NCBI GenBank assembly: GCA_963666485.2
Contig: CAXXUO010000006.1
Location: forward strand, 1-64,000
Length of the DNA: 64,000 nucleotides
Reading direction: 5' to 3'
From: Syntrophorhabdaceae bacterium
Lineage (GTDB): Bacteria > Desulfobacterota > Syntrophorhabdia > Syntrophorhabdales > Syntrophorhabdaceae
In this document: positions 4,758-33,493 of the stretch, one piece after another
How the letters are laid out: the number at the start of each line of letters is the position of its first letter
Position numbering within the stretch: the stretch's first letter is position 1
Notes under the pieces: generated by a model
Databases searched by the model: none
The model's input: the letters and a program-made list of their open reading frames with translations, nothing else
Told to the model about the DNA's origin: nothing
Position numbers and translations under genes: made by a program

Positions 4758-4768
4758 AGGTCCTCTCT

Positions 4769-7138: not shown

Positions 7139-7152
7139 TGCCTTATGCTCTC

Positions 7153-7806: not shown

Positions 7807-7820
7807 TTTACCTCCGCCGT

Positions 7821-10350: not shown

Positions 10351-10379
10351 TTGACAAACGCCGTTTCGCAGAGGATACT
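10351..10379 (+). promoter_or_regulatory. Putative sigma70 promoter for the glycolysis/Ech operon
   Basis: TTGACA-17 nt-GATACT, followed by a ~200 nt leader. Confidence 0.55.
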
Positions 10380-10583
10380 TAATTATATTCGAGATGATCA
10401 GTCTAACTGATGATATGAACAGGTGCGGGCGGAAGGTATCGCAGGGCGGATAAATAATTTGCACCTATCGATATTGGGTATTTTCAACTGACGGGTATAC
10501 GAAAAGACGCACATCCGCTCAGGATCGCGGAGTGTGGAGGGTAGCCTGTGACATTTGAACCGATAAAAGCCAGTGGGGTCACT

Positions 10584-12941: not shown

Positions 12942-12982
12942 TACTGATGCGACGGAACGCATAGACCGTGGAGGGAAACACG

Positions 12983-14269: not shown

Positions 14270-14309
14270 CCGAAAGTTCCGTCGTCCAAGACGGATAGGG
14301 GTATCGTCA

Positions 14310-16403
14310 ATGTCCAAAAGTCTTTATATCATGAGCCTTGAGAGACAAAGCGGCAAGACCCTTGCGGCACTTGCCCTGATGGAGCACCTGGCAGGACGGG
14401 TCGGGAACCCCGGCTTCTTCAGGCCCGTAATATTCACCGACAAGGGGCCGGACAGGTTCATTGCTCTCGCAATGTCCCTCTACGGCCTTAATTTTTCGCC
14501 GGAAGAGATGTATGGTGTTACCGGGGCCGAGGCCATGCCCCTTCTCGCTGCAGGAGATTACGACGGGCTTTACACACGCATCCTCGAAAAGTACAAGGCA
14601 CTGGAGGAGAGGTCGGATTTCGTTCTCTGCGTCGGTACGGATTACAGCGGCGCTTCGATGGCCCTCGAGTTCGACTTTAACGTCGAGTGCGCACGGAACC
14701 TCGGCTCATCTCTCATCCCTGTCCTCAACGGGCGTGGCAAAGATGCAGGTACGCTGGTAACCGGCATTCGGGCCCTCGAGGAGGAAATGGAGAATGAGAA
14801 GTGCGACATGGCTGCGGTTATCGTCAACCGGATTGCGCCTGACCGGCGTCAAGACCTCATCGCGGTTGTCAGTAAAAGACCGACCGGGTCCCCGCCTGTA
14901 TACGTACTGCCCGAAGAGCCCATGCTCGATAGACCGACGGTAGGCGAGATCGCCACCGCGCTCCGCGCGGCGGTCATAAGCGGTGATGCCGAACGGCTGG
15001 AAGGAGAGGTCGTCGACTTTAAGATAGGTGCGATGGAACTGCCGAACTTTCTTGAGCGGCTGGAGTCGGGAAGCCTCGTCATCACCCCCGGGGATCGGTC
15101 CGATATTGTCGTGGGCGCCCTCGTTGCCGACAGGTCTGCGAACTACCCGCATATTTCCGGGGTGGTGTTGACGGGCGGCCTGAAAGTGGCACCACAGATA
15201 TTGAGACTCATGGAAGGACAGGCGTCCCCGGTCCCGGTGATGCACGTCGAGACGGACACCTTTACAGCTGCTATGAGCATACACAGCCTTTTGCCCTCCT
15301 TTACGGCCAAGAGCAAGAGGCAGATCGCCGCCGCGCTCGGTCTTGCCGACGCTTACGTGGATTTTGGAGATATTCTCGGGAAGGCGATCCTCAAGCGTCC
15401 CGGGCAGACCACGCCGCTCATGTTCCAATACGAGCTCATCAGAAAAGCCAAGCTACAGCGCAAGCATATCGTTCTGCCGGAAGGCATGGAGGAGCGCATT
15501 TTGAGGGCGGCGGAGATCGTCCTCTACCGGGATGTCTGCGATATCACGCTGCTCGGCGATCCGGAGGCCGTAAAAGAAAAGGCATCGAACCTCGGGCTTT
15601 CGATCGATCGCGCCAGGATCGTCGACCCCCTTACCTCCGAACTCCTCCCCGTCTACGCCGATGCGTACTATCAATTGCGCAAACACAAGGGTATCTCGCC
15701 TGACATGGCGCGGGACACAATGACAGATGTCAGCTACTTCGGCACCATGATGGTGCACCTCGGCCATGCGGACGGCATGGTCTCCGGGTCGGTGCACACA
15801 ACGGCGCACACCATCAGGCCGTCCCTCGAGTTTGTAAAGACCCGGCCGGGGATCTCCATCGTGTCGAGCGTTTCCTTCATGTGCCTTGCCGACAGGGTGC
15901 TCGTCTACGGAGACTGCGCGATCGTCCCCGATCCGACAAGCGAACAGCTTGCCGACATCGCGATCAGTGCGGCTGGGACCGCAGCCGGTTTCGGCATCGA
16001 GCCAAGGATCGCAATGCTTTCGTATTCGACCGGTGAATCGGGCCACGGGCCCGAGGTGGACCGGGTACGGGAGGCGACGCACCTTGTGCGCACGCGCAGG
16101 CCTGACATCAAGGTCGAAGGCCCGATACAGTATGACGCCGCCATCGACTCGACGGTCGCGAAGCTGAAGATGCCGGGCAGCGAGGTTGCGGGCCAGGCCA
16201 CTGTCTTCATCTTTCCGGACCTCAACGCCGGCAACAACGCATACAAGGCCGTGCAGCGCGCCACCAACGCTGTTGCCATCGGGCCCGTCCTCCAGGGGCT
16301 CAACAAGCCCGTTAACGATCTGAGCCGCGGCGCCCTCGTTCCGGACATTATCAACACCATCGTGATCACGGCCATCCAGGCCCAGGCAGGCGGGTCTTTA
16401 TGA
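14310..16403 (+). CDS. pta: Phosphate acetyltransferase, long form with DRTGG domain
   Basis: ITPGDRSD, IVLPEG, EGPIQYDAA, FPDLNAGN and KPVNDLSRG motifs. Confidence 0.96.
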   Translation: MSKSLYIMSLERQSGKTLAALALMEHLAGRVGNPGFFRPVIFTDKGPDRFIALAMSLYGLNFSPEEMYGVTGAEAMPLLAAGDYDGLYTRILEKYKALEERSDFVLCVGTDYSGASMALEFDFNVECARNLGSSLIPVLNGRGKDAGTLVTGIRALEEEMENEKCDMAAVIVNRIAPDRRQDLIAVVSKRPTGSPPVYVLPEEPMLDRPTVGEIATALRAAVISGDAERLEGEVVDFKIGAMELPNFLERLESGSLVITPGDRSDIVVGALVADRSANYPHISGVVLTGGLKVAPQILRLMEGQASPVPVMHVETDTFTAAMSIHSLLPSFTAKSKRQIAAALGLADAYVDFGDILGKAILKRPGQTTPLMFQYELIRKAKLQRKHIVLPEGMEERILRAAEIVLYRDVCDITLLGDPEAVKEKASNLGLSIDRARIVDPLTSELLPVYADAYYQLRKHKGISPDMARDTMTDVSYFGTMMVHLGHADGMVSGSVHTTAHTIRPSLEFVKTRPGISIVSSVSFMCLADRVLVYGDCAIVPDPTSEQLADIAISAAGTAAGFGIEPRIAMLSYSTGESGHGPEVDRVREATHLVRTRRPDIKVEGPIQYDAAIDSTVAKLKMPGSEVAGQATVFIFPDLNAGNNAYKAVQRATNAVAIGPVLQGLNKPVNDLSRGALVPDIINTIVITAIQAQAGGSL

Positions 16404-17617
16404 TGAAAGTGGCTGTAGTTAATTGTGGAAGCTCCTCCATCAAGTACGAAGTCTTCAACGTGCCGGGTTTCTCCCTGTACGCGAAGGGTCTTGTCGAGAA
16501 GATCGGAAGCGGCGACAGCTGTCTGCACCAGCAGAGGTTCGGCCCTGAAGGGACTACCGGGGAGCGGGTCTATGCGAAAAAACTGGCCGATCATAACGAC
16601 GGGTTCCATTTCATGGCGGACGTGAACAGGGAGGACCCCGTTATAGGAGACGACACGGAACTCATCGGTATCGGGCACCGGGTAGTCCATGGGGGTGAAG
16701 TTTTCCGGGAGGCGGCCCTCATCGACGATGATGTCGTCGAGGCGATCCGCGCGCTCATACCGCTCGCCCCCCTGCATAACCCTTCCAACCTGCTCGGAAT
16801 AGAGGCTGCCAGAACTAGGTTCCCCGGGGTGCCCCAGGTAGCGGTGTTCGACACGGCATTCCATCACACGCTGCCCCCGCATGCATTTCATTATGCCGTG
16901 CCCTATGACTGGTATACGGAATTACACGTCCGCAGATACGGGTTTCACGGCACCTCGCATTTCTACGTGTCGAGAGAGGCTGCGCGCTATCTTGGCAGGG
17001 AGCCCGAGGCGCTTAACCTCATCACCCTTCATCTCGGGAACGGGGCCAGTGCCGCTGCGATCCGGGGAGGCATGAGCATAGATACGTCCATGGGCATGAC
17101 GCCCCTCGAAGGCCTCGTCATGGGTACGAGGTCCGGGGACATCGACCCGGCCGTCCCCTTCTACGTCATGAGACAGACGAGGGTACCGGCAGATGAGTTG
17201 GAGAGGTCCCTCAACTCGTCAAGCGGCCTTAAGGGTATCTGCGGGCTGAACGATATGAGAGACATTATCGACCAGGCCGAAAGCGGCAACGAACGCGCCC
17301 GCCTCGCCGTCGAAATGTTCTGCTACCGCATCAAAAAATATATCGGTGCATACGCGGCGGCCCTTGGCCGAGTCCACGCCATAGTGTTCACCGGCGGCAT
17401 CGGCGAGAATTCAGGCGCCGTACGCGGTTGGATCTGCAAGGGTTTGGAGAATATGGGTATAATAGTAGATGAGGCAAAAAATGCGGCCGCCACGACGGAC
17501 ATTACCGACATCGGACAGAATGGGGCGCCGGTCAGGATACTGGTGATAAAGACGGACGAGGAACGCGAGATTGCCCGTCAGACCGTCAGGTCCATCGAAA
17601 GGGCAGGGAACGTATAA
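16400..17617 (+). CDS. ackA: Acetate kinase
   Basis: NCGSSSIK, GHRVVHGG, APLHNP, RRYGFHGTSH, HLGNG and FTGGIGEN motifs. Confidence 0.97.
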   Translation: MMKVAVVNCGSSSIKYEVFNVPGFSLYAKGLVEKIGSGDSCLHQQRFGPEGTTGERVYAKKLADHNDGFHFMADVNREDPVIGDDTELIGIGHRVVHGGEVFREAALIDDDVVEAIRALIPLAPLHNPSNLLGIEAARTRFPGVPQVAVFDTAFHHTLPPHAFHYAVPYDWYTELHVRRYGFHGTSHFYVSREAARYLGREPEALNLITLHLGNGASAAAIRGGMSIDTSMGMTPLEGLVMGTRSGDIDPAVPFYVMRQTRVPADELERSLNSSSGLKGICGLNDMRDIIDQAESGNERARLAVEMFCYRIKKYIGAYAAALGRVHAIVFTGGIGENSGAVRGWICKGLENMGIIVDEAKNAAATTDITDIGQNGAPVRILVIKTDEEREIARQTVRSIERAGNV

Positions 17618-17672: not shown

Positions 17673-20600
17673 ATGGCACGTAAAATGGTCACTATCGACG
17701 GGAACGAGGCTGCCGCTTCAGTTGCTTTCCGACTCAATGAAGTCGTAGCCATTTATCCGATAACACCCTCGTCGCCCATGGCGGAACTTTGCGATGCGTG
17801 GGCTGCCGCAGGGAAAAAGAACATATGGGGGGACGCCGTATCCATAATGGAGATGCAATCCGAGGCCGGTGCGGCAGGGGCGGTGCATGGGGCCCTCCAG
17901 GCCGGGGCGCTAACCACCACGTTTACCGCGTCGCAGGGACTTCTGTTGATGATACCGGACATGTACAAAATAGCCGGCGAGCTTACTTCCTGTGCGATGC
18001 ACGTCGCGGCAAGGACAGTGGCGACCCACGCCCTGTCAATATTCGGTGACCACTCCGACGTGATGGCCTGCCGGCAGACAGGATTTGCCCTGCTCGCCTC
18101 CGGTTCCGTTCAGGAAGCCCATGACATGGCCTGCATCGCGCAGGCGGCGACACTCGAGGGCCGTATCCCGTTCCTCCACTTTTTCGACGGGTTCCGGACC
18201 TCCCACGAAGAGGCAAAGATCGAACTTTTGTCCGATGATGACCTGCATTTCATGATGCGCAGCGATCTCATTCAGGAACACCGCGCCCGCAGTCTCTCGC
18301 CGGACCGTCCAATGCTCAGGGGCACGAGCGAGAACGCCGACACATTCTTTCAAACGCGTGAGGCCGCCAACACCTTTTACCTGGCGCTTCCGGAAACGGT
18401 CCAGCGCGTGATGGAGCGGTTTGCCGCACGGACCGGCCGGGCATATAATCTGTTCGATTATTATGGCGATGCGGCTGCCGAACGGGTCATTGTTTTGATG
18501 GGGTCCGGAGCACAGACGGCCATTGAGACCGTGGACCATCTTGTACGGCAGGGCGAAAAGGTTGGGGTACTTGTGGTCCGGCTCTTCCGGCCCTTCCAGT
18601 CGGACCGTTTTATCGCTGCCCTCCCCAGGTCCTTGAAAGGATTGGCCGTGCTTGATCGCACGAAGGAGGCGGGTTCGGTAGCCGAACCGCTCCACCTTGA
18701 CATCATTGCGTCCCTGCAAGGGCGCGGCAACGATGAGGGAGAGCATTTCCGGAACGTGAGCGTTATCGGCGGACGGTACGGTCTGTCCAGCAAGGAGTTC
18801 ACTCCCGGCATGGTAAAGGCCGTATTCGATGAATTAAAGAAAGCACGGCCTGCGGACCATTTCACCATCGGCATTGAAGATGACGTGACAAACCTTTCGC
18901 TGCCCTATGATGGAGCATACGACATTGAGGGCGGTGACACCGTGGGTGCCGTATTTTTCGGCCTCGGGGCCGACGGGACGGTGGGTGCCAACAAGAATTC
19001 GATAAAGATCATCGGGGAAGAGACGGACAATTTTGCCCAGGGTTACTACGTGTACGACTCGAAAAAGTCCGGGTCGGTAACGGTATCGCATCTCAGGTTC
19101 AGCCCGGCGCCCATCAGGTCGGCCTATCTTCTGCGGCAGGCAAGGTTTGTCGCCTGTCACCAGTTCTCCTTCCTCGAGAAGATCGACGTCCTGAGGTATG
19201 CCCTGCCGGGCGCCGTATTCCTTCTGAACAGCCCGTATGGGGCCGACGATGTCTGGGAGCACCTCCCCGGGGAGGTCCAGTCGGCGATCCTCGATAAAGA
19301 ACTTCGTTTCTACGTGATCGACGCCGGCCGGGTGGCGAGGGAAGCGGGTATGGGGAACAGGATAAATACGGTCATGCAGACATGTTTTTTTGCCATATCG
19401 GGGGTCCTGGCCCGAGAGGCGGCAATTGAGAAAATCAAGCAGTCGATCAGGAAGACTTACGGGAAGAAAGGCGAGGAGGTGGTCGAGCGGAATTGTGCCG
19501 CCGTTGACACCACGCTCGAAAACCTCCATGAGGTGTCGGTGAGCGGGAGGACCATAACAGGCCTGCCGCGCCCTTCGATCGTATCCGATCAAGCGCCTGA
19601 CCTTGTCAAGCGCACGATCGTGCCGATGATGCTCGGCGAAGGGGACAGTCTGCCCGTAAGCGCCTTTTCTCCCGACGGCACATGGCCTACGGCAACGACA
19701 CAGTGGGAAAAGCGCAATATCGCATACGAGGTTCCCGTCTGGGACCCGTCGGTTTGCATCCAGTGCATGAAATGCGCGATGCACTGCCCCCACGCGACTA
19801 TACGGGGGAAGATCTACGACCCTTCACTGCTTTCCAACGCCCCGCAGTCCTTCCGGTCGGTGCCCCTTCGTTCCAAGGATTTCAAAGATAAACAGTTTAC
19901 TGTTCAGGTGGCCGTCGAGGATTGTACCGGGTGCGGCCTCTGTGTTGCCGTCTGCCCGGCGAAGAATAAAGAGAACCCGCGGCGCAGGGCGATCAACATG
20001 GAGCCGCAGGCCCCTTTGCGCGAGCAGGAAAGAGACAATTACGCTTTCTTTCTCAGCATTCCGGATTTCGACCGCTCTACCGTTGAAAAGCTTGACGTCA
20101 GGACATCGCAGTTCGTGACGCCGCTCTTCGAATACTCGGGCGCATGTGCCGGCTGCGGAGAGACCCCGTATATCCGGCTCCTTACCCAATTGTACGGCGA
20201 CCGCCTGCTCGTTGCCAACGCGACGGGGTGCTCCTCGATCTACGGGGGGAACTTGCCCACGTGCCCGTACGCGACCGACCCGGAAGGGAGGGGCCCCGCA
20301 TGGTCAAATTCTCTTTTCGAAGACAATGCCGAATTCGGTCTCGGGTTCCGGCTAGCGCTGGATGCGCAGCGCGATCAGGCAGAGCGGCTCTTAAAGGGCT
20401 TCACAGGGACTCTTGACGGCGGCCTTATCGGGAAGCTTCTCGATCCCGTTCCGGAAAGCGACAAGGCTATCGCTGATCAGCGTGCGCTCGTCGCCGACCT
20501 GAAGCGGCGCCTGAAATCTATCGATACGATGGAGGCGCGCCAGTTGGAGATGCTCGCGGATTATCTCGTGCCCAAGAGCGTCTGGATCGTTGGCGGTGAC

Positions 20601-21296
20601 GGCTGGGCTTATGACATAGGGTACGGGGGACTGGACCATGTGCTGAGCACCCGGCGCAACGTCAATGTTCTCGTTCTGGATACCGGGGTTTACTCCAACA
20701 CGGGAGGACAGGCATCGAAAGCGACACCTCTCGGTGCTGCCGCCAAGTTCGCGGCCCACGGAAAGGATGTGAGCAAGAAGGACCTCGGACTGATGGCCAT
20801 GAGCTACGGGTACGTCTACGTAGCAAGCGTGGCGCTTGGTGCTCAGGAAGGGCATACCCTGAAGGCTTTTCTCGAGGCCGTGTCGTATCCGGGACCATCC
20901 CTCATCATGGCATACGCACATTGTATTGCCCACGGATATGAACTCAAGTTCGGGGCCCAGCAGCAGAAACTGGCCGTGGACTGCGGAGTATGGCCGCTCT
21001 ACCGGTATGACCCCCGGCGAATCGGCGAGGGGGAGCCGCCCCTGATCGTGGACGCTGTAGGGGGTAAGATTCCCGTCTCGGAATACATGAAGAACGAAAC
21101 CCGCTTCAGGATGGTGGAAAAGCTCGATCCCGAGAAATTCAGGAAATACGCGGTACAGTCACAGCTTTCGGCGGAGCGCCGGATGGCCGTCTACAAGCAC
21201 ATGTCTCAGCTGCGCCTTCCCACCGCCGACCGGGGCGGTACAACCGCGTCCGAAGAACGCTCAGAGACTGGCTTGCAGCCGGAAAAGGAAAGGTGA
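17673..21296 (+). CDS. nifJ: Pyruvate:ferredoxin (flavodoxin) oxidoreductase, single-chain
   Basis: YPITPSS, SEAGAAG, GLGADGTVGANK, two CxxCxxCxxxC, GACAGCGETPY and GGDGWAYDIG; 1207 aa. Confidence 0.97.
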   Translation: MARKMVTIDGNEAAASVAFRLNEVVAIYPITPSSPMAELCDAWAAAGKKNIWGDAVSIMEMQSEAGAAGAVHGALQAGALTTTFTASQGLLLMIPDMYKIAGELTSCAMHVAARTVATHALSIFGDHSDVMACRQTGFALLASGSVQEAHDMACIAQAATLEGRIPFLHFFDGFRTSHEEAKIELLSDDDLHFMMRSDLIQEHRARSLSPDRPMLRGTSENADTFFQTREAANTFYLALPETVQRVMERFAARTGRAYNLFDYYGDAAAERVIVLMGSGAQTAIETVDHLVRQGEKVGVLVVRLFRPFQSDRFIAALPRSLKGLAVLDRTKEAGSVAEPLHLDIIASLQGRGNDEGEHFRNVSVIGGRYGLSSKEFTPGMVKAVFDELKKARPADHFTIGIEDDVTNLSLPYDGAYDIEGGDTVGAVFFGLGADGTVGANKNSIKIIGEETDNFAQGYYVYDSKKSGSVTVSHLRFSPAPIRSAYLLRQARFVACHQFSFLEKIDVLRYALPGAVFLLNSPYGADDVWEHLPGEVQSAILDKELRFYVIDAGRVAREAGMGNRINTVMQTCFFAISGVLAREAAIEKIKQSIRKTYGKKGEEVVERNCAAVDTTLENLHEVSVSGRTITGLPRPSIVSDQAPDLVKRTIVPMMLGEGDSLPVSAFSPDGTWPTATTQWEKRNIAYEVPVWDPSVCIQCMKCAMHCPHATIRGKIYDPSLLSNAPQSFRSVPLRSKDFKDKQFTVQVAVEDCTGCGLCVAVCPAKNKENPRRRAINMEPQAPLREQERDNYAFFLSIPDFDRSTVEKLDVRTSQFVTPLFEYSGACAGCGETPYIRLLTQLYGDRLLVANATGCSSIYGGNLPTCPYATDPEGRGPAWSNSLFEDNAEFGLGFRLALDAQRDQAERLLKGFTGTLDGGLIGKLLDPVPESDKAIADQRALVADLKRRLKSIDTMEARQLEMLADYLVPKSVWIVGGDGWAYDIGYGGLDHVLSTRRNVNVLVLDTGVYSNTGGQASKATPLGAAAKFAAHGKDVSKKDLGLMAMSYGYVYVASVALGAQEGHTLKAFLEAVSYPGPSLIMAYAHCIAHGYELKFGAQQQKLAVDCGVWPLYRYDPRRIGEGEPPLIVDAVGGKIPVSEYMKNETRFRMVEKLDPEKFRKYAVQSQLSAERRMAVYKHMSQLRLPTADRGGTTASEERSETGLQPEKER

Positions 21297-21299
21297 TAT

Positions 21300-22292
21300 A
21301 TGGACCTCTCGACCACATATCTCGGACTTAAGCTCTCCAACCCGTTCATTGCAGGCCCGTCCCCCCTTACCGGCCGTTTCGACACGGTCAGGGGCCTTGA
21401 GGAGGCCGGCATTGGGGCCATCGTGACTCCACCGCTTTTCGAAGAGCAGCTTAAGGACGCCGAGATGGACCTCTTCCGATCTATCGACACTCCGGCCGAG
21501 TCTTTCCCCGAGGCGCTGTCGTATTTCGCCGAACCCGAACGCCCCCTGGTCGCTGTCGAAGGCTACGTGGCGCATATAGCAGAACTGAAGAAACAGGCTG
21601 GCGTTCCCGTCATAGCGGCTATTAACGCTGTCACGCGGGACCGGTGGACCGACTACGCGAGGCGGATGGAGGATGCGGGCGTCGATGCGCTGGAGCTTGA
21701 TTTTTACTTCGTCGGGAACGATGCAGACCAGTCAGGCTCCGAAATCGAAGGGCGCTTTATCGATGCCCTGACAGCGGTGAAACAGTCTGTACGGATCCCC
21801 GTAAGCGTAAAGATCACACCCTTTCACACCTCTCTCGCGCACTTTGGGTGGAGCCTGGAGAAAGCGGGGGCCGACGGCATAGTCCTCCTTCACCGGTTTT
21901 ATGAGCCCGACCTGGATATTGAGAACCTGGAGCCCATCTCGAGGCTTAAGCTTTCCGATTCCCGGGAATTGCCCTTGAGGCTGAGGTGGCTCGCGATCAT
22001 CTCCGGCAAGGCCGCCTGTTCCCTTGCTGCGAGTGGTGGTGTCCATTCGGTTGAGGACGCGGTCAAGGCCATCATGACGGGGGCAGACTGTGTGCAGGTG
22101 ACCTCGGCGCTTTTGAAAAACGGGATAGGGTACGCGGCATCCTTGCGTCAAGGGCTTGAGGCCTGGCTTCAGCATAAAGAGTACGAATCGCTGGGGCAAA
22201 TGCGGGGCAGCATGAATATTGAGCGGATCCCGGAGCCCGGGGCCTTTTCGAGGGCCCACTACATGCATCTCATGGACTCGTGGGGGACGTAG
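21300..22292 (+). CDS. Dihydroorotate dehydrogenase-like FMN protein (PFOR-associated family)
   Basis: MDLSTTYLGLKLSNP, LFEEQ, IPVSVK, RFYEPDLD and LAASGGVH; lacks the N-x-S-C-P-N catalytic loop. Confidence 0.85.
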   Translation: MDLSTTYLGLKLSNPFIAGPSPLTGRFDTVRGLEEAGIGAIVTPPLFEEQLKDAEMDLFRSIDTPAESFPEALSYFAEPERPLVAVEGYVAHIAELKKQAGVPVIAAINAVTRDRWTDYARRMEDAGVDALELDFYFVGNDADQSGSEIEGRFIDALTAVKQSVRIPVSVKITPFHTSLAHFGWSLEKAGADGIVLLHRFYEPDLDIENLEPISRLKLSDSRELPLRLRWLAIISGKAACSLAASGGVHSVEDAVKAIMTGADCVQVTSALLKNGIGYAASLRQGLEAWLQHKEYESLGQMRGSMNIERIPEPGAFSRAHYMHLMDSWGT

Positions 22293-22369: not shown

Positions 22370-23821
22370 ATGAACATCGATTCACCAAAAACGAAGATCG
22401 TGTGTACTATCGGACCCGCCTCCGAGTCGCCCCAAATGATGAAGCAGATGATCGAGGCAGGTATGAATATCGCACGGCTCAATTTTTCGCACGGTGAATT
22501 CGCAGCCCACAAAAAAGTCATCGACAATCTGCGGGCCGTTTCCGGGTCATTGGGCACAAGGATTGCCATCATGGCCGACCTTTCCGGACCGAAGATGCGG
22601 ATCGGGAACGTCACCCCGGAGCCGACGGAACTCAAAGCCGGTGATACTTTCGTGCTTACCACCGACCAGGACGCAAGCGGGACCGGTCGGGTATCGGTCA
22701 CCTTCATGGGTCTCCCCGGGGCCGTGAAACCCGGCGACATACTCTTTCTCAACGATGGGTACATCCAGTTGAAAGTAGCAGAGGTAAAAGGAAACGATGT
22801 CATCTGCACGGTGCTGGTAGGGGGAGAGATCCGTTCCCGCAAAGGGCTTAACCTGCCGGGGATCGACCTCGGGATCGACGCATTCACGGAAAGGGACCGC
22901 GAGTGCCTGAAGTTCGCCCTGGAGAACGGGGTAGACGCCGTCAGCCAGTCTTTCGTCGAACGCGCTGCCGATATCGAGGCGGTGCGCAAGGCGGCGGCAG
23001 ACCTCGGCCATTCTCCCTTCGTCATCGCCAAGATAGAACGTTCCGGCGCCCTTGAACACATCGAGCGGATACTCAGGGCGGCCGACGGCATCATGGTCGC
23101 GCGCGGTGACCTGGGTGTGGAGATCCCTATCGAGGACATCGCTGTTGTACAAAAGAGGATCATCCGTTTGGCAAATATGCTCGGTAAACCGGTCATTACG
23201 GCCACCCAGATGCTCGAGTCCATGGTCGACAACCGCCGTCCGACACGGGCGGAGGCAACAGACGTGGCGAATGCGATCTTTGACGGGACCGACTGCGTCA
23301 TGTTGTCCGCCGAATCCGCCATGGGGAGGTACCCTGTGGACGCCGTCGCCATGCTTGCGAAGATCGCGGCGTCCTCAGAGGCCCACCGGCCCTCCCACAC
23401 GGTGCGGGGGTTGTTCAAGGATATCGATCTCGAGGGAAAGGTACGCCCCGAACATCTCGTTGCCATCAGTGTACAGGCCTGCATGGAGTACTCAATGCCG
23501 GCGGCTGTATTCGTCCCCACCAGCAGCGGGGCCACGGCCCGGAACATAGCGCGGTTCCGCCTTCCTGTCTGGACCGTTGCCATCAGCAGGAATGAGGCGA
23601 CATGCCGGCACCTTCAGTTCTCCTCAGGTGTATTTGCGGTACAGGAAGGGCAAACCCCGGAAAACTGGAAAGAATACGTGAGAGCGTGGGTGGATGCCCA
23701 CGGCCTGAAAGGAGATCTGGCCCTTGTTACAGAGGGGCCTTCATCCCGGCATCCGGAAGCCAACCACAGTATGGATATCATCGAACTCTTGGCCGAAACC
23801 GGCCGGGAAGGAGTGTCGTGA
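22370..23821 (+). CDS. pyk: Pyruvate kinase
   Basis: [40 protein letters not shown] and PTRAE motifs. Confidence 0.97.
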
Positions 23822-24567
23822 AGAAACTCGTCCTGCTCCGCCACGGCGAGAGCACATGGAACAGGGAAAACCGTTTCACCGGGTGGACCGACGTGCCCCT
23901 CTCGGAAACGGGCATCGAGGAGGCGCTTAAGGCTGGTCGCCTTCTGAAGGAGGGAGGTTTCACCTTCGATATCGCATTTACCTCTGTGTTGAAGCGGTCC
24001 ATCAAGACCCTGTGGATCGTCCTCGAGGAGATGGACCTGATGTGGATCCTCGTTATGCGCAGCTGGCGTCTGAACGAACGCCACTATGGTGCGCTTCAAG
24101 GGTTCAACAAGAGCGAGTCGGCCGTCGAGCACGGAGAGGAACAGGTGCGCCTGTGGCGCCGCAGCTACAATGTGCCGCCACCCCCTTTAAGTCCCGACGA
24201 CCCGCGCCACCCCCGTCATGACCCGAAGTACGCCATGCTCCACCCCGGGGACCTTCCTGCCACGGAGTGTCTCAAGGACACGGTGAATCGTGTCCTGCCA
24301 TACGCACAAGAAAGTATCGGTCCGGCGCTCAGGGAAGGGAAACGCGTACTGGTCGTCGCCCACGGGAACACCTTGAGGGGCTTCATCAAATATGCCGAGA
24401 GGATATCCGACGAAGATATCGCCGGCCTCAATATTCCCACGGCGGTGCCGGTCGTGTATGAACTGGAGGACGATATGAGGATCATCCGGAGATACTACCT
24501 CGGCGACCCTGATACTGTGGAAAGGTCTGTTCAGGCAGTGGCAGACCAGGCGAAGAAGGAAACATAG
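23818..24567 (+). CDS. gpmA: 2,3-BPG-dependent phosphoglycerate mutase
   Basis: [27 protein letters not shown] and AHGN; GTG start overlaps the pyk stop. Confidence 0.96.
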
Positions 24568-24683: not shown

Positions 24684-25118
24684 ATGAAAATATTGACCAC
24701 ACCGAGAATGGAGCGGTGCATCGGATGCCACTCCTGTGCTCTCGCCTGTGCGAGGCTTGTGCACAAAAATCTGTCATGGGCTACCGCCGGGATACGGATA
24801 CACTCGTCAGGCGGATTATCGACGGGTTTCGAGGCAAAGACCTGTCTCGCCTGCGACCCCGCCCCCTGCGCTGAGGCCTGCCCTACTGGCGCTTACTCGC
24901 AGCGGAAGGACGGCGGCGTTATCGTGAAGAAGAGTCTCTGCATTCGCTGCGGGAAGTGCGCTGAGGCCTGCCCTGTGGATGCCATATATCTTGACGACTC
25001 CACCGAACCGTTCGTATGTTTACATTGCGGGCGCTGTGTCCCTTTCTGCCCGCATGACTGCCTCGAGATGGCGGATGCCCCCGGAAAGAGGTCAGTTCAG
25101 AAGGGAGGTGCGGCATGA
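24684..25118 (+). CDS. 4x[4Fe-4S] electron-transfer subunit of the adjacent AOR-family enzyme
   Basis: Four Cys motifs (CIGCHSCALAC, CLACDPAPCAEAC, CIRCGKCAEAC, CLHCGRCVPFC); ATGA overlap with the next gene. Confidence 0.9.
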   Translation: MKILTTPRMERCIGCHSCALACARLVHKNLSWATAGIRIHSSGGLSTGFEAKTCLACDPAPCAEACPTGAYSQRKDGGVIVKKSLCIRCGKCAEACPVDAIYLDDSTEPFVCLHCGRCVPFCPHDCLEMADAPGKRSVQKGGAA

Positions 25119-26872
25119 TCAGGGATCATTTCAGGGTCCTGGGAGTCGATCTTACGACGGGCCGCGGGAACGTCGAGATCGTCGAAGGCAGGGACCTGGT
25201 TGCCGGCGGAAGCGGCCTCGCAGCCCTGCTTTTCGAAAGGCACGGGCATCCGGACAAACCATGGGATGACCCGGACCAGCCCCTCATTTTCGCAATAGGG
25301 CCGCTTACAGGTTATTTCCCGCTCATGAGCAAGACAGTCTGCGCCTTCAAGTCCCCCTATCACGACCAGTATGCGGAGAGCCACGGCGGCGGACGCTCGG
25401 CCCTTGCACTTCGTTTTGCAGATTACGATGCGCTGGTGGTGACGGGCAGGGCACAGAATCCATCCGTAATAGCGCTCGGGTCACGTCACCTGGGGATTAT
25501 CGATGCTTCCTACCTCTGGGGCAAGGATGTATTCGAGACAGGGAAGATGCTGCGCGGGATGTCGAAGGGTTCGGGACATCGCAGTATTCTGCGGATCGGG
25601 CCCGCCGGTGAGCTTGGCTCGTCCTACGCGGAGATCAACGTCGACACGTACCGGCATTTCGGGCGGCTTGGCGGCGGGACCGTCATGGGGAACAAGAACC
25701 TCAAGGCTATAGTAATAAGGGGTGACGCCGCTTTTCCTCTCCCGGAATCGAAGGAGTATCAGAAGATTTTCCAGGAGGTTTACACAAAGCTTACCGATAC
25801 TGACATGATGAGCAAATACCACGACATAGGCACACCGATAAACATGGCCGCGCTCAACAAGCTGAATATGCTTCCCATCCGTAACCTTCAGCTGACAACG
25901 GACCGGGGCATCGATGCAATAACGGGTGAAAGGTTTGCCGATGACACCCTTCTCAGGAACGCCGCCTGCGCGGGCTGCCCGGTGGGGTGCATTCACATAG
26001 GGTTTGTCCGCGAGCGCTTCACGAAAGAGCACCGCTATATTTACCATCAGGTTTCCTACGATCATGAGCCGATCTTCGCCGTGGGAGCGATGCTGTCCGT
26101 CATGGACCCTTTCCAGGTCCTCGCGATAATCGACGTATCCGAGAAGATGGGACTCGACGTGATGTCTGCGGGTGTTGCCCTCGCCTGGGCCACCGAAGCG
26201 ACGGAAAAAGGTCTTCTTTCGGAACGGGAGACACTCGTCCGCCTTTCGTTTGGTGATACCGAGGCCTATAAGGACGCGATGGAGCACCTCGGGCGGGGAA
26301 CGAACGAGTTTTACCGCCTGTTGACGCAGGGGACACTCAAGGCCGCCGACCATTACGGCGGAAGGGAGTATTCGTGCGTTCTCGGTCAGGAAATGGCGGG
26401 CTACGCGACCGGCGAGGTGTACTTTGCCTCGCAGGCCCTGGGGTTGCGCCACTCACACCTCGATAGCGGCGGTTATTCCTATGATCAGAAAGAAACCGGC
26501 AAGGATGTGTCCAAGGCGATCGATTTCCTCGTTAAGGATGAGCAGGGCAGGGTGCTGCTTACCTCAATGGTGGCGTGCCTTTTTGCACGGGGCGTGTACA
26601 CGGACGAGCTGCTGGCGAGGTGCTTGAAGTCGGTCGGCTACGATAATCTTGCCGAGAACATGGGGCCCGTCTCACGGGCGATCCAGCAGCTGCGCTGGAA
26701 GATGAGGCTTGATACCGGCTACAAGCCGGAGGACATCGCAATCCCGAAGCGCTTTTACGAAGTGACAACGGTGAAAGGCGCCGTGGACGCGGCATTTTTG
26801 GATGAACTGATGAAAGAGTATGCCAGGACCATCCGTAAGCTGGCGGCAGCCGGGGAGGGTGCCCCGTTGTGA
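25115..26872 (+). CDS. Aldehyde:ferredoxin oxidoreductase family W/Mo-pterin enzyme, probably GOR-type (glyceraldehyde-3-phosphate) large subunit
   Basis: FKSPY..ESHGGG, IGPAGE, GRLGGGTVMGNKNLKAI, CAGCPVGC and GLDVMSAG; 585 aa; glycolytic gene context. Confidence 0.85.
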   Translation: MIRDHFRVLGVDLTTGRGNVEIVEGRDLVAGGSGLAALLFERHGHPDKPWDDPDQPLIFAIGPLTGYFPLMSKTVCAFKSPYHDQYAESHGGGRSALALRFADYDALVVTGRAQNPSVIALGSRHLGIIDASYLWGKDVFETGKMLRGMSKGSGHRSILRIGPAGELGSSYAEINVDTYRHFGRLGGGTVMGNKNLKAIVIRGDAAFPLPESKEYQKIFQEVYTKLTDTDMMSKYHDIGTPINMAALNKLNMLPIRNLQLTTDRGIDAITGERFADDTLLRNAACAGCPVGCIHIGFVRERFTKEHRYIYHQVSYDHEPIFAVGAMLSVMDPFQVLAIIDVSEKMGLDVMSAGVALAWATEATEKGLLSERETLVRLSFGDTEAYKDAMEHLGRGTNEFYRLLTQGTLKAADHYGGREYSCVLGQEMAGYATGEVYFASQALGLRHSHLDSGGYSYDQKETGKDVSKAIDFLVKDEQGRVLLTSMVACLFARGVYTDELLARCLKSVGYDNLAENMGPVSRAIQQLRWKMRLDTGYKPEDIAIPKRFYEVTTVKGAVDAAFLDELMKEYARTIRKLAAAGEGAPL

Positions 26873-28768
26873 AGTCCCTGATCTTCCTTATAGTTTTTCC
26901 TCTCTTTGTCGCGGGAGTGGCCGCATTGCTGCCTGCCGCGCGGCTTGCGCTGAGAAAGACGCTCGGCGTTATAGCAGCAGTTGCTTTAAGCGCCGTCCCG
27001 ATCTACCTGCTCGTCTCCTATATCGACAAAGGGCCTGTGTATTTTCCTGTCGAGAGCCATACGGTCAATATTGCCATGCTTATTGCAGAGATGGGCATCG
27101 CAGCTCTCATCGTGTACATCTCCTTGAGGTCGAAGAGGTCCCTGCCCGTTGTCCTCGTGGTTGTCCAGTCGCTGATCATGGTGATCTTCGAGTTCACGGC
27201 GGGCCGCGGAATGACGGTTGAACACGGCCTGTTCGTGGACAAGTTCTCCATCATCATGGCGCTTATCGTCGGCGTTATCGGAAGCGCCATCTGTCTCTAC
27301 GCGATCGGCTATTTCCCGGAATATCACGAGCACCACAAGGAGGTCAGGCCGAGGCGCAGGTATTTCTTCTTCCTCATATACCTCTTTCTCTCCGCCATGT
27401 TCGGCATAGTCTTCTCCAATAACCTGATGTGGCTCTACTTCTTCTGGGAAATAACGACGATCTGCTCCGCCCTGCTCATCGGTTACAGGAACGACGAGCA
27501 GTCGATCCAGAGCATGTTCCGGGCGCTCAACATGAACCTGCTGGGAGGCGTCCGTATTTGCCGTTGGCCTCGTCTATCTCTATAGCTCGACCGGGGTTAT
27601 GGAACTCGATAAACTGATACGGCTCGAGCAGACGTATGCGCTGCTTCCCGCGGTATGCCTTTCCTTTGCCGGTCTTGTGAAATCGGCCCAGCTTCCGTTC
27701 TCCTCCTGGCTCACAGGCGCCATGGTCGCCCCCACGCCCGTGTCCGCACTGCTCCATTCGAGCACCATGGTAAAAGCCGGGGTGTACCTGATCCTGAGAG
27801 TGGCCCCGGCGCTCGAGAACACGGCAGCGGCAAAGATGCTCATGCTCATCGGCGGCGTCAGTTTCATCGTTACCGCCTTCATAGCCATCTCCCAGAGCAA
27901 CGCCAAGAAGGTGCTCGCCTATTCGACTATCTCCAACCTGGGCCTCATCGTGGCCTGTGCGGGCATCAATACGGCAGCCGCGATATGGTCGGCACTGCTC
28001 CTGATCATCTTCCATGCCGTGGCCAAGTCGCTTCTCTTCCTCTGCGTGGGCATCATCGAATACAAGCTCGACAGCCGCGACATAGAGGATATGGATTACC
28101 TGATCATGCGCCTGCCGAAACTGACGGCCGTGATGATGATCGGCATGGCGGGGATGTTCATCGCACCCTTCGGGATGATCATCAGCAAGTTCGTAACGCT
28201 CAAGGCGTTCATCGAAACGAACCCCGGAATGGCGGTGATCCTGGCGTACGGCAGCGCAGCAACGGTCATCTTCTGGGTGAAATGGATGGGCAAGATCATG
28301 TCCATCAGGCACGGAATGACGGACGTCGTGGAAAACCGGATAAGCGGCTGGGAATGGTTCACGCTCACAGTGCTGGCCCTCTCCACGGTAGCGGTCTGTT
28401 TTGCCTTCCCCTTTATCTCCCGGGGGATCATCGACCCTACCTGGCGGAATTGTTCACGGCCGTCCCCGTGCTCGAGACCCTTAACATCACGATAACCTTT
28501 TTCATATTTGTCGGCCTGCTCATTATCCTACCCCTCGGACTCCTCTATTTTGCGTTTGCCAATAAGAATTACAGAAGGGTAGGGACCTACCTCGGAGGGG
28601 CGAACATCGACAACGTCACCTTCGAAGGAGCGATGGAGGTCGAGGCAGATGATACGGATGAAGAACTATTACCTCGAGAAGTACTTCGGGGAGGAACGCC
28701 TGTTCAATGCCGGCGTCCTGGTTTCCCTGACCCTGCTTCTCGTCATGTTCGGGGCGGCATTGATATGA
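26869..28768 (+). CDS. echA: Ech hydrogenase subunit A (NuoL/MrpA-like); three frameshifts
   Basis: FFWEITT, KSAQLPFSSWL.GAMVAPTPVSALLHSSTMVKAG, KKVLAYST and C-terminal KNYYLEKYFGE in different frames. Indels near 27553, 28436 and about 28640. Confidence 0.88.
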
Positions 28769-29646
28769 ACAGCGTGTATGAAATATACCAGGCTCTCGGC
28801 ATCTTCGAAAGGATACTGGCCTTTATCGTGCTGGCGCCGATTGTCGGGGCGCTCCTGGCCGGCCTTGACCGGAAATTGAGCGCACGTCTGCAGGGCAGGT
28901 ACGGTCCGCCCGTGAGACAGCCTTTCTTCGACGTCATGAAGCTTCTCCACAAGGAAAGGATCGTTGTCAACAAATTCCAGAACTTCAACGTCATCCTCTT
29001 CTTCCTGTTCACCGTGCTGTCCGGCGCCCTCTTTTTTGCCGGTGCGGACCTCCTTCTCACTATCTTCGCCCTGGCCCTGGCGGAAACGTTTTTCATCCTG
29101 GCAGGGTTTTCCGTCAGCTCTCCCTACAGCCACATCGGTGCCGAACGCGAGGTGATACAGATGGCGTCCTACGAACCGATGGTGATCCTCGTGGCCGTGG
29201 GGATGTACCAGGCGGCGGGCACGTTCAACGTCGGCGATCTCGTGCAGCACCAGGGACCGCTGATACTGTACCTTCCCGGGATCTTTGCGGGCTTTTTGTA
29301 TATTCTCACGATCAAGTTCAGGAAATCGCCCTTTGACCTTTCCATGAGCCACCATGCGCACCAGGAGATCGTCCGCGGGATAACCACCGAATTTTCGGGT
29401 CCCACACTCGCCCTCATCGAGGTGACGCACTGGTATGAAAATGTCCTTCTCCTCGGCATCGTATATCTTTTCTTCGGCTTTAACCCCTGGATCGCCCTCG
29501 CGGCCACCCTGGGGACGTACGCATTCGAGATCTTTATCGATATGAATTACGCCCGTTTCAAATGGCAGCTGACGCTCGGGAGCGCCTGGGCATTCACGGC
29601 CGTGGCCGGGGTCTCCAATATTATCGTTCTCAGTATGATGAAATAA
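28765..29646 (+). CDS. echB: Ech hydrogenase subunit B (NuoH-like)
   Basis: GLDRKLSARLQGRYGPP, KSPFDLS and HQEIVRGITTEFSG; start MNSVYE overlaps the echA stop. Confidence 0.92.
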   Translation: MNSVYEIYQALGIFERILAFIVLAPIVGALLAGLDRKLSARLQGRYGPPVRQPFFDVMKLLHKERIVVNKFQNFNVILFFLFTVLSGALFFAGADLLLTIFALALAETFFILAGFSVSSPYSHIGAEREVIQMASYEPMVILVAVGMYQAAGTFNVGDLVQHQGPLILYLPGIFAGFLYILTIKFRKSPFDLSMSHHAHQEIVRGITTEFSGPTLALIEVTHWYENVLLLGIVYLFFGFNPWIALAATLGTYAFEIFIDMNYARFKWQLTLGSAWAFTAVAGVSNIIVLSMMK

Positions 29647-29663
29647 TAGAGGGGAATAGATAG

Positions 29664-30110
29664 ATGAAATGGTTCAAACGATCGCCATGGGTCCTCCACT
29701 ATAACGCCACGAGCTGCAACGGGTGCGACACGGAGGTCATCGTCTGCCTCACCCCCCTGTATGATCTGGAGCGGTTCGGCATTATGAGCACGGGCAATCC
29801 CAAGCACGCCGATATCCTGGCCGTCACGGGATCGGTGAACGAGAAGAGCGTCCAGGTGGTGAAAAACCTCTACGATCAGATGCCGAATCCCAAGGTCGTC
29901 GTAGCGGTCGGCATCTGCGCCACTTCAGGATGTGTGTTCCAGGATTGTTACAACGTCAGGGGAGGCGTCGACAAGGTCCTGCCCGTAGACGTGTATGTCC
30001 CGGGATGTGCGGCGCGGCCCGAAGCTATTATCGACGGGATACTCCGGGCCTGCGATATTCTCGAACAAAAACAGGCCGAAAGGAAAAGGAGCGCGGGGAA
30101 CAAGTCATGA
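29664..30110 (+). CDS. echC: Ech hydrogenase small subunit C (NuoB-like)
   Basis: SCNGCDTE, NPKHAD, VGICA and YVPGCAARPE motifs. Confidence 0.93.
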   Translation: MKWFKRSPWVLHYNATSCNGCDTEVIVCLTPLYDLERFGIMSTGNPKHADILAVTGSVNEKSVQVVKNLYDQMPNPKVVVAVGICATSGCVFQDCYNVRGGVDKVLPVDVYVPGCAARPEAIIDGILRACDILEQKQAERKRSAGNKS

Positions 30111-30529
30111 GCGAACCTCAGGAAATAATACCGCTGCCGAAGCACGATCTCGTGGGGGTGGTTGCCCGCCTTTATGCGGAAGGCTACCGGCTCGTACAGA
30201 TCAGCTGCAACACCCTTCCGGCTGAATACGAACTCAACTATTCATTCGACAAGGACTATCAATTTAAAAACCTTCGCGTTAGCGTAGGTCCCGGGGAAGA
30301 CGTTCCCAGTATCAGCATGATCTACCAGAACGCTTTCCTGTATGAGAACGAGATCCATGACCTGTTCGGCGTCACGGTCACGAACATCTCTATCGACTAT
30401 GGCGGGACGCTTTACCGGACCGCTATCAAGGCCCCGTTCAGTATTGACAACGTAAAGTTTCCCGAGCCTCCGAAGGCAAAGACGGACGCTCCGGGAAAAG
30501 CCCCTAAGGAACCAAAGGAACAGGCTTGA
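30107..30529 (+). CDS. echD: Ech hydrogenase subunit D (NuoC-like)
   Basis: YRLVQISC, ELNYSF and PSIS..AFLYENEIHDLFG motifs. Confidence 0.9.
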   Translation: MSEPQEIIPLPKHDLVGVVARLYAEGYRLVQISCNTLPAEYELNYSFDKDYQFKNLRVSVGPGEDVPSISMIYQNAFLYENEIHDLFGVTVTNISIDYGGTLYRTAIKAPFSIDNVKFPEPPKAKTDAPGKAPKEPKEQA

Positions 30530-30569
30530 AGGGCCTGAAGGCCAAAAAGAACGGAAGGAGCAGTCTCTT

Positions 30570-31649
30570 ATGGCGCGGATAGCAGTTTTACCCTTTGGAC
30601 CACAACACCCGGTCCTGCCCGAACCGATCCACTTCGATCTCGTGATAGAGGATGAAAGGGTTGTAGACGCGATTCCCTCCATAAGTTACGTCCACCGGGG
30701 ACTGGAAAGGCTGATCGAAAAGAGGGATTTCATCGATTTTGTGCACGTCGCCGACAGGATATGCGGCCTGTGCAGCTTTATGCACTGCATGGGTTATTGC
30801 CAGGCCGTGGAACAGATCATGGGCATAGAAGTGCCGCCGCGGGCGGTCTACCTGAGGACCATCTGGGCAGAGTTGGCACGGGTCCACAGCCACATCTTCT
30901 GGCTCGGTGTGGCAGCCGATGCCTTCGGTTACGAGAGCCTGTTCATGCAATCCCTGCGGCTCAGAGAGACAATCCTCGACATATTCGAAGAGACAACGGG
31001 GGCCAGGGTGATCCTGGGAACGTGCAAGGTGGGAGGCGTCAGAAGGGATATAGACGCTGATATGCTGAAAGGGGTCCTGGCCAAACTCACGAACCTCACG
31101 GCGCATCTACGCGAGGTAAGCCGCGTCTTTATCGACGATTATTCGATCAAGCACCGTCTGGTCGGGGTAGGGTACATATCAAAAGAAGACGCCCATGCGT
31201 TAGGCTGCGTCGGGCCGATGGCGCGGGCAAGCGGGCTCAGCATCGATATGCGCACGCTCGGGTATGCCGCATATAAGGACCTCGAGGTCAAGCCCGTGGT
31301 AGAAACCGGGGGTGACTGCTACGCGCGGTGCCTCGTCAGGATCCGCGAGATCTTTGATTCCATTGATCTCATCCGCGAGGCGGCGGGAAAGATACCCGAG
31401 GGACCGTTCGACGTCAAGGTGAAGGGTGCCCCTGACGGCGAATACTTTTCCCGCATCGAGCAGCCCCGCGGCGAGGTCATCCACTATGTCAAAGGGAACG
31501 GGTCGAAGTTCCTGCAGAGGTTCCGGGTAAGAGTGCCCACTTTCAGCAATATCCCGGCAATGATCACGGTCTTGAAGGGTTCGGAGATCGCTGACGTTCC
31601 CAACATCATACTGACCCTCGACCCCTGCATCAGCTGCACCGAGAGGTGA
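30570..31649 (+). CDS. echE: Ech [NiFe]-hydrogenase large subunit E (group 4e)
   Basis: PFGPQHP, L1 RICGLC and L2 DPCISCTER at the very C-terminus. Confidence 0.95.
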   Translation: MARIAVLPFGPQHPVLPEPIHFDLVIEDERVVDAIPSISYVHRGLERLIEKRDFIDFVHVADRICGLCSFMHCMGYCQAVEQIMGIEVPPRAVYLRTIWAELARVHSHIFWLGVAADAFGYESLFMQSLRLRETILDIFEETTGARVILGTCKVGGVRRDIDADMLKGVLAKLTNLTAHLREVSRVFIDDYSIKHRLVGVGYISKEDAHALGCVGPMARASGLSIDMRTLGYAAYKDLEVKPVVETGGDCYARCLVRIREIFDSIDLIREAAGKIPEGPFDVKVKGAPDGEYFSRIEQPRGEVIHYVKGNGSKFLQRFRVRVPTFSNIPAMITVLKGSEIADVPNIILTLDPCISCTER

Positions 31650-31651
31650 CG

Positions 31652-32044
31652 ATGAGATCTTTTACGATGTCGAAGACGGTGATCAGGAACCTCCTTAAAG
31701 GGCCTGTCACGCTCATGCACCCGAAGAAGAAACGCACATTCACGCCCATCACGAAGGGAAGGGTCGAGAATGATATCAACCGGTGCATTTTCTGCGGATT
31801 GTGCTCCCGGCGCTGCCCTACCTACGCCATTATTGTCACAAAGGATGCGAAGCAATGGCAGATCGACCGTCTCAAATGCTGTACGTGCAACCTCTGCGTC
31901 GAGGTATGCCCCGTCAAGTGCCTGAGAATGGACAACCGGTATGCCGAACCGGTGGTCCAGAGAAGCGAGGCGATCTATGTGATAAACCCGGACAAGGAGC
32001 CCGCATCGTCGACGGTCAAGGGCACTGAAGGGGAGGGCACATGA
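31652..32044 (+). CDS. echF: Ech hydrogenase subunit F (NuoI-like, 2x[4Fe-4S])
   Basis: CIFCGLCSRRCP and CCTCNLCVEVCP motifs. Confidence 0.9.
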   Translation: MRSFTMSKTVIRNLLKGPVTLMHPKKKRTFTPITKGRVENDINRCIFCGLCSRRCPTYAIIVTKDAKQWQIDRLKCCTCNLCVEVCPVKCLRMDNRYAEPVVQRSEAIYVINPDKEPASSTVKGTEGEGT

Positions 32045-32197
32045 GCGTCCCGGCGCCTTCAGGGTGATGATCCCGCCGGCGAAGTATCCGGAGGCGCTGA
32101 AACGGCTAATCACAGGACAGGCAAGGATTGCGGGGAACCATAAAACATTGTATAAAGAAAACGTATGAGACTAAAAGGCACGAATGGAGAGACAACT

Positions 32198-33487: not shown

Positions 33488-33493
33488 GGCGCC

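Follow-up and report, generated by a model that had tools for sequence, protein, structure and literature searches.

The window analysed here, a 64,000 nt stretch (positions 1 to 64,000 of contig CAXXUO010000006.1, assembly GCA_963666485.2) from a Syntrophorhabdaceae bacterium, encodes two proteins, WorS and WorL, that form a real, intact heterodimer of the glyceraldehyde-3-phosphate (GAP):ferredoxin oxidoreductase (GOR) lineage within an unusually complete fermentation operon. Judged from sequence and gene context, WorSL is probably a GOR acting in a glucose/glycogen-to-acetate and H2 operon, with the reduced ferredoxin drained by the Ech hydrogenase encoded immediately downstream; the activity is a predicted one. 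The pair and its operon represent neither a new enzyme class nor a new kind of system. The GOR call made in the initial annotation of this DNA stands, but two arguments offered for it, that the enzyme fills a hole left by missing gap and pgk genes and that it is coupled to echA, are weaker than first stated. Papers are cited by PubMed Central number, and the statements credited to them are those of excerpts. The two genes are:

24684..25118, forward strand: worS (gorS-like), small polyferredoxin subunit of 144 aa with four [4Fe-4S] motifs
25115..26872, forward strand: worL (gorL-like), tungstopterin large subunit of 585 aa

The coordinates and lengths of the two open reading frames (ORFs) described behind gpmA were borne out; 116 nt separate the end of gpmA from the start of worS, and worS and worL overlap by 4 nt. 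WorS has 17 Cys residues in four ferredoxin-type motifs, in agreement with its description as a four-cluster subunit; 16 Cys are invariant across 16 homologues, and WorS adjoins WorL in 69 of 73 related loci. WorL, described as an AOR-family protein, scores over the Pfam cut-offs for AFOR_N and AFOR_C, and its predicted model (pLDDT 92.5) superposes on the best five solved AOR/FOR chains with template-modelling (TM) scores of 0.84–0.88 at 24–28 % identity. With residue numbering matched to Pyrococcus furiosus AOR through structure-database comparisons, the catalytic and second-shell residues (T240, E318, Y430 and H448) and the cluster Cys residues (285, 288, 292 and 488) are intact, and C285, C288, C292 and C488, together with the pterin-binding D348, are kept in all 41 aligned proteins of the window lineage. 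Retention of all four second-shell residues, Thr, Glu, Tyr and His, is the mark of GOR used in PMC12096430; these residues are common also to AOR and FOR and do not fix the substrate. A four-cluster WorS beside WorL, without a dedicated flavin or membrane subunit, places the pair in class II of the tungsten oxidoreductases (WORs) as defined in PMC13328260. An ESM Atlas search with WorL returned generic AFOR clusters only, and the nine PDB matches included no GOR structure; a comparison of C-terminal arginines with the FOR substrate site gave nothing, the alignment ending at FOR residue 424 and a C-terminal search finding no match.

The lineage assignment rests on several comparisons. WorL is 44 % identical (253/579) to Caldicellulosiruptor bescii ACM59936.1 (586 aa), which we take to be the characterized GOR large subunit of that species (the supplementary information of PMC12096430 gives that subunit as WP_015907364, a number not among the four accessions listed), and 44 % identical (251/575) to WP_073270162.1, labelled GOR_Alkalibacter in the same supplement; the former was found in a cluster holding the Caldicellulosiruptor proteins, reached from one of the WorL relatives, and the latter in a different cluster. 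Identity to 67 outgroup WORs is at most 30 %, and among representatives clustered at 50 % identity the full-length relatives of WorL lie at about 33–55 %, followed by generic WORs near 30 %. Conversely, the C. bescii protein queried against the source genome finds WorL best (496 bits; next 120 and 112). In a 33-row tree, 23 GOR-like rows separate from 10 other WORs at 100/100 support (trees were built with FastTree or LG+G4), and WorL groups with the C. bescii enzyme at 100/100. The phylogeny proposed by the initial annotation thus leaves WorL outside the classical AOR clade and the AOR sensu stricto part of the tree, the outgroup rows being unnamed WORs and named AOR, FOR and GAPOR proteins being compared through PDB and NCBIfam searches. 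The NCBIfam archaeal GAPOR model NF040818 gives WorL 18.2 bits against a cut-off of 1300, and WorL is not a member of that family. When 41 of 120 proteins of the window lineage and 82 of 272 other GOR-like ones were aligned with the 67 outgroup sequences, 32 positions were common to the two GOR-like groups and rare among the outgroup. Records from Treponema, Syntrophothermus, Thermosyntropha, Pelotomaculum and Methanosarcinaceae also name GOR-like proteins, so that the lineage extends widely through the anaerobes.

Positions 10548–32044 hold sixteen same-strand genes separated by gaps of no more than 116 nt, in the order gk-pgi, pfk, pta, ackA, PFOR, DHOD-like, pyk, gpmA, worS, worL and echA–F, which are presumably co-transcribed from the gk-pgi fusion through echF. 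The remaining members, with the hydrogenase maturation genes, are:

2435..8162, reverse strand: hypA, hypB, hypF, hypC, hypD and hypE, [NiFe] hydrogenase maturation genes
10548..12941, forward strand: glucokinase-like domain fused to glucose-6-phosphate isomerase (PGI), the latter over its cut-off
12968..14269, forward strand: pfk, ATP-dependent 6-phosphofructokinase, NF005301 over cut-off, GGDG motif
14232..17617, forward strand: pta and ackA, NCBIfam cut-offs passed
17673..22292, forward strand: pyruvate:ferredoxin oxidoreductase (PFOR), NCBIfam cut-off passed, and a DHOD-like partner gene
22370..23821, forward strand: pyk, pyruvate kinase, NCBIfam cut-off passed
23818..24567, forward strand: gpmA, 2,3-bisphosphoglycerate-dependent phosphoglycerate mutase, NCBIfam cut-off passed
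26869..28768, forward strand: echA, ion-translocating membrane subunit, 632 aa after mending three single-base assembly errors
28768..32044, forward strand: echB, echC, echD, echE and echF; echE has both Ni-binding CxxC motifs and no C-terminal extension

The kinase domain of the fusion protein is a weak match (E 3.6e-11, under cut-off); the fusion recurs in the related genome G021. Five of the hyp genes score over cut-off, and hypC, which had no match at the threshold applied, was named by eye. A promoter scan placed a 10/12 site at 10351–10379, upstream of gk-pgi, and 14 promoter-like sites against 7.4 ± 3.0 expected, and showed no terminator-like site between gpmA and worS; these signals are too weak to use. 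A Rex box search with one consensus gave no match and a looser consensus gave 8 against 9.5 expected, with two Rex-type N-terminal domains encoded in the genome. A tRNA search of the window found none.

The initial annotation had WorSL filling a gap/pgk hole. For the operon this holds, but for the organism it does not: gap, pgk and tpi form one block on C2, outside the operon, and the hole is therefore the operon's and not the organism's. A genome-wide lack of glyceraldehyde-3-phosphate dehydrogenase (GAPDH) and phosphoglycerate kinase (PGK) was accordingly rejected. The genes fba, tpi, eno, pgm, two glgP and glgX were likewise located elsewhere in the genome, as were further, more distant copies of pyk, gpmA, pfk and pgi, and because these glycolytic and glycogen genes and second copies lie elsewhere we regard the operon as an accessory catabolic set. 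None of the four aldehyde dehydrogenase matches scanned (five in the genome) scored best as GAPN. The genome check suggested for tungstate uptake and the molybdenum cofactor was answered in part: moaA and two moeA genes are present, whereas tupA- and tupB-like matches fall under the equivalog cut-offs; the metal of WorSL is presumably tungsten. Small two-cluster ferredoxin candidates are encoded elsewhere in the genome. C1 carries two further WORs, at 147775–149745 and 1227427–1229175, a protein recognized by eye as BamB-like and another with 53 % identity to the eutBC-linked AOR type described below, and a pstA-like gene at C3:181250–182096 is split in two ORFs, probably by another assembly indel.

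The relatives of WorL sit in glycolysis and glycogen clusters. The comparison covered 79 loci from named genomes, drawn from the 80 best among 251 matches; once four loci of Bacillota and two of archaea had been set aside, 73 of the window lineage were left. At least one glycolysis/glycogen family is present in 47 of these and three or more in 24, and of the 30 loci of at least 21 kb, 22 have one or more family, 16 have two or more and 8 have none; random 21.7 kb windows of the source genome have one or more family in 7.8 % of cases and two or more in 2.0 %. The families found among the flanking genes of the 73 loci were fba (28), gpmA (24), pyk (21), pfk (18), eno (15), ackA (14), pta (13), glgP (12), glgX (10), pgi (9), pgm (8), ldh (8) and gap (5), with pgk, tpi and the iron-dependent alcohol dehydrogenase (Fe-ADH) in none. 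The loci are kin and not independent, and because gene order differs from locus to locus, the association suggests that linkage has been retained. In the window, 40134–44414 encodes a GH63/MGH1-like hydrolase and a GH13 amylase-like protein, possible glucose suppliers that recur in related islands. Behind a distant GOR-like pair at L124:9124–13937 lie a Pfk-like gene and one resembling 6-phosphofructo-2-kinase/phosphatase, which is unusual in a bacterium.

Several observations weigh against reading WorSL as a GOR. The window lineage sits on a long stem of its own (0.74, support 100/100), and an approximately unbiased (AU) test did not tell nested and sister placement apart (p-AU 0.21). At 23 positions the window lineage differs invariantly from the other GOR-like proteins of the C. 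bescii side, and these include P319, A431, E434 and S451, beside the catalytic E318, Y430 and H448. The kinship of the loci means that the counts above are not independent; no glycolytic neighbour was seen in the 8 long loci already mentioned, in the deeper members L128 and L129, in any of nine more distant GOR-like loci or in the four Bacillota loci. The absence of pgk from the loci may reflect only a housekeeping gap-pgk-tpi operon elsewhere, and the argument drawn from it is weaker because tpi is equally absent (0/73, with gap in 5/73). The operon itself lacks fba, tpi and eno, and the Tup matches are sub-threshold. Because of the long stem and the invariant changes beside catalytic residues, we infer the substrate, as we do the direction of the reaction and the electron flow to Ech. 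Since these changes flank catalytic residues despite the 32 shared GOR positions, WorL is a GOR-lineage enzyme that may have a retuned pocket.

Taken further, the same changes could mean that WorSL acts on another sugar-linked small aldehyde (methylglyoxal, lactaldehyde, glyceraldehyde or another sugar phosphate) in detoxification or a side branch, with GAPDH/PGK carrying the main flux, an explanation that we consider unlikely. The private stem and the altered surroundings of three catalytic residues speak for it, as do gap and ldh in 5 and 8 loci, respectively, the intact gap-pgk-tpi block in the genome, and the presence of a characterized member in only 2 of the 40 class II clades (as counted in the excerpt of PMC13328260). 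Yet the lineage retains the 32 GOR-specific positions, gpmA, whose substrate is the product of GOR, is a neighbour in 24 of the 73 loci and pgk in none, and C. bescii too keeps GAPDH beside GOR (PMC8269263).

The reading that we favour remains oxidation of GAP by WorSL, which would be a cytoplasmic tungsten oxidoreductase of class II within the GOR lineage. Glucose or glycogen-derived hexose would be converted to GAP through pgi, pfk, aldolase and tpi, and WorSL would oxidize GAP directly to 3-phosphoglycerate (3-PG) with reduction of ferredoxin, yielding neither NADH nor ATP at this step; electrons would pass from the W-pterin to the WorL cluster, then through the four WorS clusters to ferredoxin. 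The 3-PG would proceed to pyruvate through gpmA, enolase and pyk, and PFOR, pta and ackA would turn pyruvate into acetate, CO2 and more reduced ferredoxin. Ech would reoxidize the ferredoxin, so that four electron pairs per hexose would end as H2 and an ion-motive force. The substrate-level yield would be 2 ATP per glucose and 3 per glycogen unit, 2 fewer than via GAPDH/PGK, and the gain would be thermodynamic, electrons still finding an outlet at H2 pressures too high for H2 formation from NADH. By midpoint potentials, a 1 : 1 NAD couple balances about 66 Pa H2 and ferredoxin at −0.42 V about 1.6e5 Pa. The GOR of C. bescii operates alongside GAPDH, and the ferredoxin it reduces can feed the membrane hydrogenase (PMC8269263); in that species GOR, pyruvate:ferredoxin oxidoreductase (POR), membrane hydrogenase, Pta and AckA belong to one Rex regulon (PMC8579813). 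That regulon comprises the set clustered here, which supports the GOR reading.

The hydrogenase end of this scheme required attention to the assembly. In the window sequence echA is broken into three out-of-frame pieces; contigs from three runs of the same sample depart from the window at exactly three places, each a single-base indel, namely 27552, 28434 and 28638; X1 and X2 have all of them and X3 has the first. Read as in these contigs, echA encodes 632 aa (631 aa in G021 and in G034). We therefore rejected echA as a pseudogene, since the same-sample contigs restore the frame at all three breaks; the sample may itself be the source of the assembly, and the comparison checks the assembly and is not independent support. 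With these errors corrected, six subunits A–F, the Ni-binding motifs and intact frames are all present. The name Ech is given from the subunit set and order; no Ech-specific model matched. Immediately after echF, at 32165–38097, lies a resistance-nodulation-division (RND) efflux trio, and the block of echA–F and RND genes recurs in G021, G271, G085 and G316.

The worL stop codon overlaps the GTG start of echA at 26869–26872, as had been claimed, and short gaps continue through echF. The coupling to echA drawn from this is a local gene order and is not conserved: the four-base overlap is particular to the source genome among the genomes examined, and echE lies within the fetched flank of 1 of the 73 loci (L077). 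Among 40 relatives EchE was found in 2; in each it shares a contig with worL, from which it lies some 28 kb distant, at the far end of a glycogen-to-acetate island. Of 300 genomes from the phylum of the window (at most four candidates scored per genome), 47 have a GOR-like match, 17 of them of the window type (at least 54 %); EchE is present in 15 and together with a window-type WorL in 5, so that 12 of the 17 genomes with the window-type enzyme have no EchE match, a further point against the proposed role. The close EchE type (at least 77 %) occurs in 4 of the 300; 3 of these also have a window-type WorL, which in one case lies 42 kb from EchE on a shared contig. G021 belongs to both genome samples, and some G genomes may equal assemblies of the loci designated L. 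In G021, G034 and G271, ech and worL share an island, 28–42 kb apart. We conclude that Ech often accompanies the island and W enzymes that reduce ferredoxin, and is not the fixed partner of WorSL. A complex prediction for WorS with EchF scored 0.00 in two runs and carries no weight either way.

The WorSL–Ech link could then be an accident of gene order, a mobile echA–F and RND block having landed behind worL, with Ech mainly serving PFOR or other ferredoxin sources and the electrons of a true GOR going to [FeFe] hydrogenases. The rarity of ech in the flanks, its distance of 28–42 kb in G021, G034 and G271, its position behind a fused eutBC gene, next to an unrelated AOR, in G271, G085 and G316, and seven Fe-hydrogenase-domain matches in the genome would all fit. 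We nevertheless hold this to be improbable, given the 4 nt overlap and the short gaps through echF, the co-occurrence of the close EchE type with the window WorL type in 3 of 4 genomes, the location of EchE on the worL contig in both relatives that have it, and the hyp genes flanking the operon.

In G271, G085 and G316, echA lies directly 3' of a eutBC fusion gene, and an unrelated AOR adjoins; the fused EutB-EutC, with an N-terminal signal-like stretch, precedes echA at L110:481–4954, in the region L113:1604–6100 (G085:C5) and in L117–L118 (G316:C48). This arrangement is a candidate module for conversion of ethanolamine through acetaldehyde to acetate and H2. A literature search found no paper on it and none joining GOR with Ech, glycogen, Syntrophorhabdus or Desulfobacterota, most subscription journals being outside its coverage; a search for the locus tag also found no paper. 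The arrangement bears on the alternative named in the initial annotation, that WorSL is a classical acetaldehyde/acetate AOR working with pta-ackA, Ech-reduced ferredoxin driving acetate towards ethanol or acetaldehyde being oxidized. Apart from the AOR-Ech-eutBC clusters of other genomes, it could draw on pta and ackA as neighbours in 13 and 14 of the 73 loci and on two zinc-dependent alcohol dehydrogenase-like (Zn-ADH-like) genes elsewhere in the genome (30–33 % to the query). We judge it very improbable: WorL falls outside the AOR part of the tree and is 24–28 % identical to solved AORs, Fe-ADH occurs in 0/73 loci and the genome's Fe-ADH-family gene is a glycerol dehydrogenase, and eutBC was not found in the source genome, where a separate AOR-type gene of the eutBC-linked clade lies on C1. 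The initial observation that the window has no adh agrees with our by-eye reading of the window ORFs, part of which were scanned, in which none was recognized.

Ech runs in both directions. With a glycogen synthase family gene in the genome and pckA near some loci, reverse use is conceivable, Ech oxidizing H2 at ion-motive cost to supply ferredoxin of very low potential with which WorSL would reduce 3-PG to GAP for ATP-free gluconeogenesis and glycogen storage. Such a role is highly unlikely, as the neighbouring genes (pfk, pyk, ackA, glgP and glgX) encode catabolic enzymes that work one way, and the excerpt of PMC12525153 gives −26 kJ/mol for the GAPOR reaction and calls it catabolic only.

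Compared with known systems, the closest is the C. bescii GOR (GorSL, Athe_0820-0821; class II WOR, clade 20), which shares with WorSL the S-then-L order, a four-cluster small subunit, a large subunit of nearly equal length (586 and 585 aa) at 44 % identity in the same clade at 100/100, the four second-shell residues, GAPDH kept in parallel, and a functional set of GOR, POR, membrane hydrogenase and Pta/AckA. WorL differs in belonging to a lineage of its own on a long stem, set apart by 23 invariant differences; pterin and tupABC genes come after gorSL, whereas ech comes after worSL, with tup/moa elsewhere; the C. bescii partners form a dispersed Rex regulon, those of the window one operon; and the host is a thermophilic cellulolytic Bacillota in one case and probably a mesophilic Desulfobacterota syntroph in the other. 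The window's host is probably Syntrophorhabdus-like, judging from the nearest named relatives of WorL (a weak sign, since the island moves), the BamB-like WOR and the seven Fe-hydrogenase-domain matches; among cultured organisms the closest relative is Syntrophus gentianae, at 78 % identity. The P. furiosus GAPOR (class I, clade 23) with its membrane-bound hydrogenase has the same proposed logic, GAP to 3-PG with ferredoxin, no ATP and an ion-pumping hydrogenase, but is monomeric and of an unrelated clade without the Tyr/His region (excerpt of PMC12096430), whereas WorL has WorS as partner. AOR sensu stricto (P. furiosus 1AOR, C. autoethanogenum 9G7J, A. aromaticum 8C0Z), FOR and WOR5/ASOR have the fold (TM 0.82–0.88), the W-pterin and Fe-S ligands and the second-shell Thr/Glu/Tyr/His in common with WorL at 21–28 % identity; the WorL motifs HFGRLG, SYDHE and YxTG replace the AAGRGG-type, GPEYE and YDPR motifs of the AOR/FOR group. 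With the six-subunit Ech (group 4e [NiFe] hydrogenase) the window copy shares the echABCDEF order, both Ni-binding motifs and the lack of a C-terminal extension; it differs in lying directly behind a WOR gene, the Ech of three other genomes lying behind eutBC.

The island is patchily distributed, with a WorL match in 5 of 40 relatives and 1 of 19 in the same genus, and it ends at a hipBA pair adjoining the signal recognition particle (SRP) RNA gene. The region 44450–46273 contains the hipA/hipB pair, the SRP RNA gene (46176–46273) and a dnaX/recR-like block (by eye); near it the GC content falls from about 58–59 % to 55 %, and it is probably the right border of the island.

Only one bacterial GOR, from a thermophile, is described as characterized in the excerpt of PMC13328260. 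If WorSL is a GOR, NADH-free glycolysis to H2, known in Pyrococcus and proposed for Caldicellulosiruptor, would extend to a lineage in Desulfobacterota and Nitrospirota, the window-type enzyme being present in those 17 of the 300 genomes sampled from the window's phylum; the operon would then be a compact whole pathway, hydrogenase included. WorSL is probably a mesophilic enzyme for assay and structure, and the operon suggests, in a form open to testing, how syntrophs may draw on stored sugar at high H2. It is possible, although we put this forward tentatively, that the operon is a single transferable module by which an aromatic-degrading syntroph ferments glucose or glycogen to acetate and H2 independently of its partner with ferredoxin as sole carrier, a new GOR lineage being translationally coupled to Ech, perhaps with direct hand-over from WorS, and the Ech block serving elsewhere as a plug-in sink with ethanolamine lyase and an acetaldehyde AOR. 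If so, an obligate syntroph would go on producing ATP through a failure of its methanogen partner and a rise in H2.

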